This document shows, one piece after another, positions 60,073-63,956 of a DNA stretch of 64,000 bases. Location: positions 64,001 to 128,000 of IMG/VR virus record IMGVR_UViG_3300010400_000001. One strand, given 5' to 3'. Both the position numbers and the translations under genes were made by a program. The notes beneath the pieces are model-generated. The model worked only from the letters and a program-made list of their open reading frames with translations, searched no databases and was not told the origin of the DNA. This DNA is from a virus. The stretch's first letter is position 1. Each line of letters starts with the position of its first letter.

Positions 60073-60398
60073 GATACGAACCCCATGAGCATCCCCATGA
60101 TGCTGTCGTCCGCGTCGTCCGCCCACGCGGGCATCACTTGACCCGGGCCTCCAGAGAGAACGATGCGGACCATGTCGGCGAGCTCTGTCAGAATCTCGAC
60201 ACGGTCAGGGGCTCCTCCCTCAAGAAGGTCCGGAAGTTTTACGAGCGCCGCTTCGACGAGCGTTCGGCGAAACATGAGCTGCATGGCAGGAATGCCGTTG
60301 AATTCGTAGCTCAGCGAAACGTAGGGCTCGTCGAGCCACACGCGTACGCAGGAATTCACCGGAGGTTTGTTGGATTCAGTCATCGATCGACCGCGCCC

Positions 60399-61222
60399 CT
60401 GACAATGGACGCCTGTTACGAAGTCTATTCCGAAGTGTCATCCGATCAGCTCACGCCGCTGATAATCGCCGCCCATCACGAGGTGCTACTGGACCTGACA
60501 ATCGCTGCCCGTCACGAGAGGTACCGCGCCTGACAAGCGCCGCCCGTCACGAAGCGACTTTCGAGACCGCTGCGGTCGTCGACCGAACGACTTCGGGGTC
60601 GAGCGATTGACAAGCGTCGCCCGTCACGAAGGTGCTTTCTCCTCCGCAAAGCCGCGGAGGAAACAAATGGAGAATTGACATCTGACAAGCGCCGCCCGTC
60701 ACGAGGTGACTCGCGAGTGACGGAGCGTTCTCTGCTCGCAGCGTCAGAGCAACGACTGACAACTCGGCGTCCGTCACGAGGTGCCTCCCAAGAGCTCGGT
60801 GCGCGCGTTGCTTCCGTGGTCGCACCAGTCTGACAAGCGCCGCCCGTCACGAGGTGCCCCCTCGCCCGTTGAACGGGAAGCGTCGTACGATGACGCCCGG
60901 GTACTGATAAGCGGCGCCCGTCACGAGATTCCCCTCGAGCGGGTCGTGCTCGTACAAGTCACCTTCTGACAAGCGTCGCCCGTCACGAGGTGCCCCTCGC
61001 TCCGGCGAGCGACATGCGACTGCACCCAGGGGCGAACCTCTGACAAGCGCCGCCCGTCACGAGGTGCCCCCCGCTTTCGCCAGCGCGAACACACCGGTGG
61101 CGACGAGAGTCGTCTGACAAGCGCCGCCCGTCACGAGGTGCCCCCCGCTGCGCGATCAGCGCAGATCCCAGGAGACTGACTATGGCCTGACAAGCGCCGC
61201 CCGTCACGAGGTGCCCCCCGCT
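60399..61222 (-). CRISPR. CRISPR-like array of 13 repeats. Consensus 36 nt on the minus strand: AGCGGGGGGCACCTCGTGACGGGCGGCGCTTGTCAG. Spacers mostly 37-38 nt.
   Basis: Plus-strand repeat starts 60399, 60459, 60495, 60530, 60607, 60682, 60756, 60830, 60904, 60966, 61040, 61114, 61187; period mostly 73-77 nt; the three gene-proximal repeats are identical and the rest decay distally; 3' hairpin TGACGGGC/GCTTGTCA has G-U pairs only on the minus strand. Confidence 0.85.
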
Positions 61223-63012
61223 CGGTGCGCCAGGAGACCTGGAAACTCGCTGCGTTGGGGCTCGATTTGCGAGCGGTTCGGATCGTCGGCTCCGAACAAG
61301 GCCGTATCCAGGCCGAATTGCCTAGATCCTAGATGGGCGTCACCAGACTGCTCGAAAGGAACTTCGTGATAGGCGTCGATTGGTCGCACTGAGTGCGACG
61401 CTCCGGAAACCCGATTGCCGGGGCCTGGGGCGCTTGTTACGTCGCCATGCGGGGCCGTGACAGAGGATTTCTCCTCCGCCCGTGCCGTCCGCTTCCGCCG
61501 GCCGTTATCCCCTTTCGGGGGTTTCAAACCCGCGCTCCGCGGGCCTGCTGCTGGGTCGCCCGAAGGCGCCCGGTAGTTCAATAGATTGATCGCCGAATTG
61601 TCGTCGCGATCTTCCTGATACCCGCACGTCGGGCACATGAACGTCGGATAGCCGGCGTTCGTGTCGCGCACGGCATTACAGGCCGAGCATCGGTTCGTCG
61701 TCGGCTCCTCTATCGGAACGAGCTCGAGGCGACCGCCGGCCCACGCCTGCTTGTACTCGAGCCGTCGCCTGAGATCTCCCATGCGAGCGGCGTGAACATT
61801 TTTGGCAAGTCGGTTTCGAGTGCGCGCGGCGTCTCCGCGCTTTCCGGCGCGCGAGAGCATCTTCGCAATGCCGGGTCCTCGCATCCGGACGGTCTCGGCG
61901 CCCATGTCGGCGATCTGACGAGCGGCCTTGCCGCAGACGTCGTCGCGAAGGGATTTGATGCGCGCGTGGTAATGAGCGACTCGCATGGCCGCTTCTTTCC
62001 AGCCCTGGCTTTGGTCGCGGGTTTTCACCCCGTCCTTCCATCGGCGAGCCATCCGCCGTTCCCACCGCTTGCGAAGCATCTCGAACTTGTCGATGCGCCG
62101 GTCGTCCCGAAGTGGCGAGTGCCACACGTGCCCCGCGCGCTCGCCGGTGGAAGCAACGGCAAGAACACGGACTCCGACTTCTACGCCGAGCTCCCTGCCG
62201 GGGACTCGCTTGGTCTGGTGCATCGCGAGAGCACGCCCGGGACCGCGCTTTTGCGGAAAGGGGCGAGGGACTTCGCATCGAAGTGCGACGTACCAGCGGC
62301 CGTCCTTCTCGGATACGCCGAGCCCGCATGCTTTGCCACCGCCGATGAAGCGATGAGAGTTTTCCTCGGTGACCGGAAGGTAGCCGCGTTCCTTCATTCT
62401 CACCCAGCCGACGCCAGGGATTTTGACTGCGCGCTCCGTCACTCGAATCGGATCGGGTTGGTCACTGTGATAGCTCGCGCGCTGCCGCCCGCGAAACCGC
62501 GGCGGTCCGGCGCTCGCGTAGCGGCCGGCCTTGAGGTGCTCGAAGAAGTGCTTCCAGCCGTCCGCGACGTCGAGCACGGCTTCGCGGATGGCGAATGCAG
62601 AGAGCTCAGAGAGCCAGCCAAAGCGCTCGGGTTGCTCTTCCTTGGCGGAGACGAGCTGCGAGTACCAGTCGACTCGACCAGCGCGGAAGTCAGGAAGCTG
62701 TACGCCCGAGGCAGGGCGATAGCGGTAGCGCGAGCCCGCCTCTGATTTCGGCGTACGCACCTTCACGGGCTCGCCGCGAATGAGAGCTGCAAGGCAGTAG
62801 CCGAAGAGAGCCGCAGCCTCCCCGCCTTTGGCGTCGATGCCCGCGAGCGCCCGGCAGCCGAGCGCGACCCCGCGGGTCCCGTCGAGCTCTTTCCATTTTT
62901 CCAAGGCCCAGTTGTGGGCCACTCGCGCGCCGGCGACATGTCGCGCGAGCACGACCCGCTGCTCGTCAGTCGGATCGAGCTCGGTCTTGTAGGCGCGGAG
63001 AATGGTGGTCAT
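61204..63012 (-). CDS. tnpB: TnpB/Cas12-like RNA-guided protein, predicted nuclease-dead
   Basis: N-terminal RAYKTELDPTDEQ...GARVAHNWAL; PPRFR; VKIPGVGWV; DGRWYV; RuvC-I LGVEVGV (D to E); RuvC-II TVRMRGP (E lost); LEYK; Zn ribbon CSAC...CPTC; RuvC-III DRDDNSAINL; about 120 aa low-complexity tail. Confidence 0.88.
   Translation of the reverse strand: MTTILRAYKTELDPTDEQRVVLARHVAGARVAHNWALEKWKELDGTRGVALGCRALAGIDAKGGEAAALFGYCLAALIRGEPVKVRTPKSEAGSRYRYRPASGVQLPDFRAGRVDWYSQLVSAKEEQPERFGWLSELSAFAIREAVLDVADGWKHFFEHLKAGRYASAGPPRFRGRQRASYHSDQPDPIRVTERAVKIPGVGWVRMKERGYLPVTEENSHRFIGGGKACGLGVSEKDGRWYVALRCEVPRPFPQKRGPGRALAMHQTKRVPGRELGVEVGVRVLAVASTGERAGHVWHSPLRDDRRIDKFEMLRKRWERRMARRWKDGVKTRDQSQGWKEAAMRVAHYHARIKSLRDDVCGKAARQIADMGAETVRMRGPGIAKMLSRAGKRGDAARTRNRLAKNVHAARMGDLRRRLEYKQAWAGGRLELVPIEEPTTNRCSACNAVRDTNAGYPTFMCPTCGYQEDRDDNSAINLLNYRAPSGDPAAGPRSAGLKPPKGDNGRRKRTARAEEKSSVTAPHGDVTSAPGPGNRVSGASHSVRPIDAYHEVPFEQSGDAHLGSRQFGLDTALFGADDPNRSQIEPQRSEFPGLLAHRAGGTS
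61357..61386 (-). ncRNA. Anti-repeat (tracrRNA/omegaRNA-like segment) inside the 3' end of the TnpB-like gene
   Basis: Plus strand AGGAACTTCGTGATAGGCGTCGATTGGTCG is an inverted, diverged copy of the repeat, so the minus-strand transcript can pair with the repeat RNA. Confidence 0.6.
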
Positions 63013-63956
63013 GGATCGTTTCCGCCGAGAGCACGAGACGCTTCGGTGAGCCAGTCGGGAACGGACAATTCCGACGGGCTCTTGGCCAGAGTGTACGAGT
63101 CGACGACGCCCTGCACAAGTTTTTCGAGGCGCGCGATCTCTTTGGCAGGGACATGTCTGGCGGCCTTTAGGCCGCCGAGGACCTTCCTCGCGTCTTCGCA
63201 GTGCTTTTCGAAAGTCATGTTCCGGGCCGGGGCATCCCGGCTATCGGCAATGAGCTGCTCGATGACGGCAAGGACGGTGCGTTCGGCGTCGTCCAGTACG
63301 GCATCGGTCACGGCGCTTCGGTTCTCTTCGTTGTCCAAGATCTCGACGACGGAGGCTCGAAGGCCCGTACGCGCGGCCGGGTCGTAGAACTCTTTCCGAA
63401 TCGCGCGAAGGGCGCCAATCACGCGATCGGCAGTCGGCTCTCCGGCAAGGAGGATGTAGCTCCCTTTGGTGATGAACCGGAAGGCTCGCGATTCCTCGAT
63501 CATGTAGGATACGGCACGTGAGACGGCGCCGGTGTTGGCGTGCGTCACGAGCCGTTCTGCTTTCTGCCGGAGCTCGTCAGCGAACGCGCGGCAGTCGGCG
63601 AGATCTTGTCCGTGCGCAGGCCCGGAAGTGAAGATCCCCTCCTTCGTCGAATACACGCGTGCGCCGGGCACGCTCTCTGCTCGCTCCCGTCCGTGCTGGA
63701 CGAGGCGCTCTACTTGAAACGAGGCGATGTGACTGCCGTCGCGCCCGACGAGCGCCGAGACGCGAAGGCCATCCCGCCTCTGCGTCCCGATGCCCGCCGC
63801 TGTCGCGGCGAGGGCCCGGTGGCGATCGAACTCTCGGAGGCGCCGCGCCGATCTCGAGAAGTCGTAGAGCGCGAAGACCCTGGCGAGCGATTCGCGATCG
63901 ACGTCGGTGAAACCCGGATAGGTGACACCGGTCTGGTAGGCGAGGACTTTGGACAT
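63009..63956 (-). CDS. Hypothetical protein (315 aa) translationally coupled to the TnpB-like gene
   Basis: Clean ORF; its stop overlaps the tnpB ATG (ATGA). Confidence 0.7.
   Translation of the reverse strand: MSKVLAYQTGVTYPGFTDVDRESLARVFALYDFSRSARRLREFDRHRALAATAAGIGTQRRDGLRVSALVGRDGSHIASFQVERLVQHGRERAESVPGARVYSTKEGIFTSGPAHGQDLADCRAFADELRQKAERLVTHANTGAVSRAVSYMIEESRAFRFITKGSYILLAGEPTADRVIGALRAIRKEFYDPAARTGLRASVVEILDNEENRSAVTDAVLDDAERTVLAVIEQLIADSRDAPARNMTFEKHCEDARKVLGGLKAARHVPAKEIARLEKLVQGVVDSYTLAKSPSELSVPDWLTEASRALGGNDP

Follow-up and report, generated by a model that had tools for sequence, protein, structure and literature searches.

A putative tracrRNA-like scaffold within the 3′ end of a phage-borne, TnpB-derived effector gene that precedes a CRISPR array

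We analyzed a 64,000-nucleotide stretch of viral DNA (the window), corresponding to bases 64001-128000 of the complete 136,226-bp virus record IMGVR_UViG_3300010400_000001, which has direct terminal repeats; the G+C content of the window is 63.6%. An open reading frame (ORF) of 602 amino acids (61204..63012) encodes a TnpB-derived, Cas12-like effector and is followed directly downstream, in the same orientation, by a CRISPR array (60399..61222). Our subject is the 3′ end of this gene, the tail beyond the last conserved protein motif, which contains an inverted copy of nearly the whole 36-nt repeat, the anti-repeat (61351..61386), and which may double as a scaffold resembling a tracrRNA, the trans-activating RNA of CRISPR systems. 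Coordinates are those of the window, and the gene, the array and all features of the tail lie on its minus strand.

The effector was characterized from the ORF list, matches to Pfam, PADLOC and NCBIfam, PDB alignments and an AlphaFold2 model. Pfam recognizes HTH_OrfB_IS605 at residues 1-42, OrfB_IS605 at 266-370 (below the cut-off) and Cas12f1-like_TNB at 413-477, and the protein passes the curated NCBIfam model guided_TnpB NF040570 (1.4e-45, 156 bits; cut-off 100 bits). PADLOC gives near-equal scores for Cas12f (PDLC01700, 6.9e-52) and Cas12u4, or V-U4 (9e-51), the latter match spanning profile positions 23-460 of 488; the Cas12u1 (V-U1/Cas12m) profile is not among the 10 PADLOC families matched. 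Among PDB chains ISDra2 TnpB scores best (3.3e-21), ahead of RdCas12n 9J09 (1.3e-10) and the LaTranC chains (1.4e-5). The gene is present in a single copy in the 136-kb genome, where neither Cas1 nor a Y1 TnpA was found; a serine-recombinase TnpA was not searched for.

A search for homologous proteins gave 44 matches, the best 30 of which make up the family alignment. DNA was compared over six loci, namely the window, L001, L002, L027, L030 and L120, the last of which was found by the nucleotide motif GCTCGCAAACCGNNNCGCAA and encodes an effector matching PADLOC Cas12u4 at 2.6e-65. The six proteins are 32-60% identical. The last conserved protein motif, NSAINLLNY (residues 472-480), is placed by alignment just past the RuvC-III Asp and encoded at 61573..61599; beyond the last core motif, 27 of the 30 aligned homologues keep a tail of at least 90 residues. 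One homologue (L029, 3001-4452), with 483 amino acids and 58% identity over the core, ends 13 residues past that motif, and no CRISPR array was found within its 7.4 kb, so that the loss of the tail appears to have gone with that of the array. A scan of genome contigs returned eight loci, none of the effector family (identity ≤31%); 108 records of the phage GenBank collection all fell below 60% identity, none spanning 80% of the effector; and a second viral scan with a different alignment returned only three already-known contigs.

The array, delineated by repeat search, comprises 12 repeats with at most 7 mismatches to a 24-nt core and one degenerate copy, with a period of ~74 nt and spacers of 37-41 nt. 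In all six loci translation stops inside or within a few bases of repeat 1: in the window the effector's TGA (61204-61206) falls within the first 36-nt repeat (61187..61222), and in the other five the array begins where the ORF ends, the stop lying within repeat 1 or 3-4 nt ahead of it. Decay affects the distal units, two of which lack a spacer. The distal repeats at 60459, 60495 and 60530 abut one another without spacers (60459-60565), and a 112-nt 'spacer' (60718-60829) holds a degenerate repeat copy (~60765-60805). Older repeats at 60530-60565, 60682-60717 and 60904-60939 begin with CUCG, as do those of L001 and L027; the four newest start with AGCG(G/A)GGGG. Between loci the repeats have just 11-25 of 36 letters in common pairwise, and in five of the six they have no stable fold of their own, which argues against a self-contained hairpin handle.

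The original prediction described about 120 low-complexity residues after NSAINLLNY and, within them, an inverted repeat copy pairing at about 21 of 26 positions with the consensus repeat and at 19 of 22 with the most distal repeat, at 60399. Recounting bears these figures out: ~122 residues follow the motif, and the best stretches of 26 and 22 nt form 22 and 19 pairs with the respective repeats. Antiparallel to the consensus, 61386..61357 forms 22 of 30 pairs and the whole of 61351-61386 forms 26 of 36 without gaps, four of them G-U. Pairing is better with some of the old repeats (28/36, the overall count for the repeat at 60399) than with the new ones (26/36), and the CUCG at the start of the older repeats is complementary to the CGAG (61351-61354) that ends the anti-repeat. 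In the predicted duplex the anti-repeat engages nucleotides 2-35 of the repeat through 27 pairs (-34.1 kcal/mol). At least 26 pairs are found at 13 of the 63,965 minus-strand positions of the window, four in the array, one at this site and eight elsewhere, and these eight correspond to ~0.04 sites expected within the 377-nt tail. Taken by itself, the inverted copy in the window is barely past chance; its significance derives from the relatives. A G+C-rich stretch near the 5′ end of the tail, chosen by a free RNAduplex search and equalled by 70% of shuffled repeats, was not accepted as the anti-repeat, since its position is not conserved.

The conservation in homologues that the original prediction called for was found, as all five relatives (L001, L002, L027, L030 and L120) carry a near full-length anti-repeat at the homologous position of their ORF tails. 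The terminal CGAG is invariant in the six loci and in a further locus, L122, described below; it lies 127, 128, 128, 129 and 130 nt from repeat 1 in five loci and 165 nt in L030. For a cognate test, the 68 nt ending 8 nt past CGAG were taken from each locus and folded against each of the six repeats. Cognate duplexes cover repeat nucleotides 1-36 with 27-33 pairs, and the cognate pair ranks first in 5/6 rows and 5/6 columns of the comparison. The summed cognate energies amount to -259 kcal/mol, whereas all assignments average -189, and 2 of 720 permutations reach the cognate total. Without gaps, the site is the sole one at its score in the whole locus for L001 (28/36), L027 (28/36), L030 (31/36) and L120 (27/36), and the duplex of L002 requires bulges (-47.4 kcal/mol). 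Shuffled repeats did equally well in 0 of 200 cases for L002 and for L030, 1 for L027, 3 for L120 and 20 for L001. Owing to the cognate test and the positional conservation we count the anti-repeat as a feature of the family that, as judged from the sequences of these loci, is conserved and co-varying with the repeat, and the copy in the window as its homologue.

Upstream of the anti-repeat, folding, the six-locus comparison and RNAalifold delineate what may be the 5′ part of a tracr-like scaffold, a chain of hairpins at 61387..61572. In the predicted fold of 61187-61580 it comprises hairpin H1 with a UUCG loop (~61553-61571), hairpin H2 (~61525-61547), a CCCC-GAAA-GGGG hairpin (~61509-61520), a GAAA-loop hairpin (~61458-61482) and a 7-bp hairpin that abuts the anti-repeat (61383-61399). 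H1 and H2 occupy the same place in 6/6 loci, directly past the N-L-x-x-Y codons; their stems are unrelated in sequence between loci and are capped by UUCG, GAAA or GCAA loops, and there are more hairpins ahead of the anti-repeat and of the conserved motif. Co-folding of the tail with repeat 1 (61187-61580, 394 nt) gives a minimum free energy (MFE) of -182.1 kcal/mol (z -2.54), a stability attained by 0 of 100 shuffles, and in this MFE fold repeat 1 is the cis partner of the anti-repeat. Compared with dinucleotide shuffles the tails are more stable in five of the six loci (z of -1.97, -2.59, -5.11, -3.07 and -3.95; -1.07 for L120), and 12 core ORF segments of equal length have z values of ~0 on average, with one of the 12 below -2. 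RNAalifold on the MAFFT alignment predicted 61 pairs, of which 31 have changed on both sides; its CGAG:CUCG helix is invariant and is therefore evidence for neither side. Across the six loci the motif GCTCGCAAACCG shows no variation at any of the three codon positions.

The same stretch is maintained as an open frame. In the AlphaFold2 model, built from the 30-sequence alignment, residues 1-484 form a folded core, most of it with a per-residue confidence score (pLDDT) of 81-96, and residues 485-602 have pLDDT values of 29-37 and no secondary structure. Over five tails (678 codons) the coding frame has no stop, versus 13 and 12 in the other frames; the tail of L120, likewise open, was not included in this count. 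The chance of an open frame, estimated by shuffling, is 0.007-0.094 per locus, and the G+C content at third codon positions scarcely differs between tail (0.64-0.68) and core (~0.73). The RSQ peptide is the RNA motif in translation and is in frame in 24 of the 30 homologues, R/L-S-Q being readable in their tails despite many insertions and deletions. Because the frame stays open and RSQ stays in frame amid these changes, we take the tail to be both translated and, presumably, used as RNA. A close relative from a landfill run (X2, 96.7% identical) has 61 substitutions between 61187 and 63042. The 26 that are listed, which reach as far as 62389, divide into five in the 396-nt tail, none of them within the anti-repeat, and 21 in the adjoining 790 nt of the core; this lower number in the tail, among those listed, is indicative only.

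Between the anti-repeat and repeat 1 lies a conserved linker or leader of 127 nt (61223..61350), defined by alignments, hairpins and spacing. It holds the near-invariant motif GCTCGCAAA(T/C)CG (61263-61274, from alignments), a covarying hairpin identified by hairpin comparison (~61278-61299) and a variable hairpin just before the repeat. Part of this region recurs at L122 (7852-9881, minus strand of that locus), a phage contig encoding a 647-amino acid Cas12u1-like (Cas12m-like) protein (3.9e-32), in which the conserved stretch CGAG ... GGGACCGCTCGCAAACCG...CGCAA...CGAAAG stands 52 nt before an array with a different 36-nt repeat. The L122 ORF ends 20 nt before the motif, which is thus conserved outside any ORF. 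No significant anti-repeat was detected at L122, where 17 of 200 shuffles do as well. On this comparison, a single leader-like element seems common to two effector families.

The catalytic site of the effector departs from that of TnpB. Glu278 (62179-62181) aligns with the RuvC-I Asp of TnpB in the PDB alignment, and across the relatives this position is Glu in the window and in most others and Asp in a few. Arg378 (61879-61881) aligns with the Glu of the IEDL motif (RuvC-II) in chain 8iaz and is invariant in 30 of 30 aligned sequences; the RuvC-III Asp468 is retained. Because an invariant Arg replaces the RuvC-II Glu and Glu replaces the RuvC-I Asp, cleavage has likely been lost across the family, and the effector is probably a DNA binder rather than a cutter.

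One spacer points to a possible target. Spacer 5 (60866..60903) agrees at 35 of 38 positions with a site in the phage's own genome (G000:C1:13357-13394; L134:1358-1395), with mismatches at guide positions 16, 36 and 38; blastn-short aligns 34 of 35 positions (E 8e-13). The match lies inside a 198-amino acid minus-strand ORF with a weak match to phrog_10650, 'dual specificity phosphatase' (E 6.6e-4), and the 5′ flank of this single protospacer ends in ...TCGGGC and is G+C-rich. Spacer 5 could serve self-regulation, or it could be directed against relatives, the mismatches then letting the phage's own copy escape. A comparison of the array spacers with the phage collection gave no match. The X2 relative has other gene-proximal spacers, seen as a 186-nt skip with 39 other letters (window 61000-61187), and differs further in array unit content (window 60442-60865), which implies that the array turns over between close relatives even though the phage has no Cas1.

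Taken together, we consider it probable that the 3′ end of the effector gene contains a functional tracr-like RNA. The tracr-like reading of the tail, already put forward in the original prediction, gains support from the cognate anti-repeats, the predicted disorder, the hairpins and the match to the published layout of Cas12n and TnpB. The 3′ third of the gene would then be dual-coding, specifying a disordered protein tail and, at the same time, a tracrRNA-like helper scaffold. The RNA would begin right past the NSAINLLNY codons, form the chain of hairpins and then offer the ~35-nt anti-repeat for pairing with nearly the whole 36-nt repeat. Gene, scaffold and array are probably contained in a single transcript; between the two, a search of the minus strand gave neither a sigma-70-like promoter nor a terminator at any point from the gene to the array. 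Within such a transcript, the anti-repeat could pair in cis with repeat 1 across the 127-nt linker, or in trans with later repeats, and a host RNase, RNase III for example, would most likely cut the resulting long, imperfect duplex. The effector would bind the scaffold together with the repeat:anti-repeat duplex, using the spacer 3′ of the repeat as the guide, and the complex would most likely bind DNA without cutting it, acting as a programmable repressor or blocker. We infer RNA expression, processing, ribonucleoprotein formation and the loss of cleavage from the sequence.

Several observations weigh against the tracr-like reading. The ungapped score of the anti-repeat is matched by the eight unrelated sites in the window, and the window duplex is the weakest of the six and the exception in the cognate test, its anti-repeat pairing less stably with its own repeat (-34.1 kcal/mol) than with the related repeat of L027 (-36.2 kcal/mol). 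The comparison covers only six loci, three of which have related repeats (21-25 of 36 letters in common), and among the non-Watson-Crick positions the excess of G-U (19) over A-C (11) is modest. RNAalifold on MAFFT alignments recovered just some of the helices, the variable hairpins being misaligned; no RNA run was listed as containing the locus, and Rfam returned no match at E ≤1 across 60300-61750. The window repeat, for its part, folds alone (z -2.18). Since the frame is held open, selection also acts on the tail at the protein level. Finally, the anti-repeat sits mid-way in the conserved RNA rather than at its 3′ end and is followed by the ~128-nt linker; as this linker is common to L122, some of what is conserved may function for the array, as leader, processing signal or promoter, and not for a tracrRNA.

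In one alternative the inverted copy acts only in cis, pairing with repeat 1 of its own transcript, and the effector uses CRISPR RNA (crRNA) alone, like Cas12m or Cas12r. Such an element might set the 5′ end of the pre-crRNA, keep mRNA and array apart or shut off the first unit. The MFE fold does pair the anti-repeat with repeat 1 in cis, at a spacing fixed to 127-130 nt in five of the six loci; the linker is common to the Cas12u1-like locus L122; the window repeat has a stable hairpin of its own; and Cas12r functions without a tracrRNA (10.64898/2026.04.20.719267). A purely cis-acting copy would, however, leave without a role the covarying hairpins that extend over ~190 nt upstream of the anti-repeat. 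The repeats of five of the six loci do not fold alone, and both the nearest profile and published systems of the same layout use the RNA as a tracrRNA. We therefore regard action in cis alone as unlikely.

A further possibility is that the conserved stretch before repeat 1, the inverted copy included, works as DNA, being a CRISPR leader recognized by a host integrase or other factor for spacer uptake, or a promoter. That two different effector families have the motif at a fixed distance, ~52 nt ahead of their arrays, speaks for a leader, as do the leader-proximal spacers, which differ between the window and the X2 relative as uptake at that end predicts. Against it, the anti-repeat co-varies as the complement of the repeat over ~35 nt, 19 G-U pairs included, and hairpin stems change while their pairing is kept; moreover, Cas1 is absent from the phage and the search for a sigma-70-like promoter gave none, and we regard a role solely at the DNA level as improbable. 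Lastly, the tail might be merely a disordered extension whose inverted match is accidental or a decaying leftover, in line with a match that is unexceptional in the window alone, a frame open in the five of six tails counted and a tail of at least 90 amino acids in 27/30 homologues, but we disfavor this reading and give it hardly any weight, given a cognate-specific complement at the same site in 6/6 loci, an RNA motif invariant at synonymous positions, a tail least changed in the X2 relative among the listed substitutions, and tails that fold more stably than shuffles.

Returning to the tracr-like scaffold, the observations can be combined into a broader picture, which we put forward as doubtful. 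In this phage lineage a TnpB would have become a nuclease-dead DNA binder programmed by CRISPR, with mRNA tail, tracrRNA and pre-crRNA in one molecule. Ribosomes would go on translating across the entire scaffold, and their passage would control when it can fold and thereby couple effector synthesis to guide maturation. At least in part, the phage's own genes would be regulated, a proposal made because spacer 5 matches its own genome at 35/38 positions, and the leader shared with the Cas12m-like locus would point to a common array-building machinery that works without a phage Cas1.

An ORF of 315 amino acids (63009-63956) lies upstream and overlaps the effector start by 4 nt. Neither this ORF nor the two downstream (104 and 179 amino acids) matched a Pfam or PHROG family or had relatives at the other loci, and no link was found between the flanking genes and the V-U24 'HTH protein' named in PMC10691335.

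Among known systems, the layout is closest to that of Cas12n (V-N, formerly V-U4), whose tracrRNA likewise overlaps the 3′ end of the ORF (PMC12216341); section 6 of a preprint (bioRxiv 10.64898/2026.03.27.714800) describes how Cas12n tracrRNAs were located by exploiting this overlap. Common to both are a small TnpB-derived effector with RuvC and a zinc-finger TNB domain that matches the V-U4 profile, an array directly downstream without adaptation genes, and a predicted disordered C-terminal tail over putative tracrRNA-coding DNA. Cas12n, however, is an active double-stranded DNA nuclease, whereas the D-E-D triad is broken here (Glu278, Arg378), and the effector is nearer to ISDra2 TnpB than to RdCas12n 9J09 by PDB scores. 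The present lineage also differs in residing on phage contigs and in the ~128-nt conserved linker between anti-repeat and array. The protospacer-adjacent motif of Cas12n is 5′ and A-rich, and the one protospacer seen here, in the phage's own genome, has a G+C-rich flank. On the sequence comparisons, the lineage is not established as a member of Cas12n, as its RuvC triad deviates and the protein is nearer to TnpB. It shares with type V effector-plus-array systems in general a RuvC-fold effector beside a co-oriented array and the lack of Cas1, and the array follows the gene in L001, L002, L027, L030 and L120 as well.

TnpB and the OMEGA systems provide the best sequence match, and their guide-RNA scaffold overlaps the ORF 3′ end too. 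Unlike them, the locus has a many-spacer array where they have one guide at the end of a transposon, no Y1 TnpA found in the phage and one copy of the gene in the genome, a scaffold that would pair with the repeat through a separate anti-repeat, and a non-canonical RuvC site. Jin et al. (Cell 2025), who described the transposon-CRISPR intermediates TranC, reportedly proposed that the omegaRNA (reRNA) split into tracrRNA and crRNA as type V systems arose; TranC is reported to be able to use both a CRISPR RNA and a transposon-type reRNA. The original prediction spoke of an omegaRNA that has split; such a split would be an evolutionary inference, in agreement with Jin et al., and the LaTranC chains match the effector, albeit weakly. 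Predicted DNA binding without cleavage is a likeness to Cas12m and TldR, both of them nuclease-deficient relatives that act as transcriptional repressors. Cas12m has a non-canonical RuvC and silences transcription (PMC10442227), and TldR uses a single adjacent guide RNA without an array (PMC13565253). The effector differs from Cas12m in lacking a Cas12u1 match and in having an anti-repeat, as Cas12m needs no tracrRNA, and it differs from TldR in having an array.

In the library searched, we found no paper on a phage-borne lineage with a RuvC-II Arg and an ORF-embedded tracrRNA, although the supplements of PMC10691335 (40 V-U groups) and PMC12607003 (landfill viruses) may list it. Since the layout is textbook for Cas12n and TnpB, the picture of type V origins is unchanged. 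What seems new is the combination of a phage-borne, predicted nuclease-dead effector with a full-length anti-repeat 128 nt before the array. Three aspects deserve emphasis: the RuvC-II Glu has apparently been lost lineage-wide, yet the complete tracr-like scaffold persists, as do arrays whose content changes between close relatives; one spacer matches the phage's own genome; and stop codons are excluded from the scaffold frame. Were the effector a compact, naturally occurring RNA-guided repressor (~480 folded residues), it would be of practical interest, and it would offer a natural system for asking why such genes translate through their own guide-RNA scaffold. Alongside Cas12n, it would add one more independent lineage in which an omegaRNA-like scaffold stayed in the gene and the guides moved to an array.

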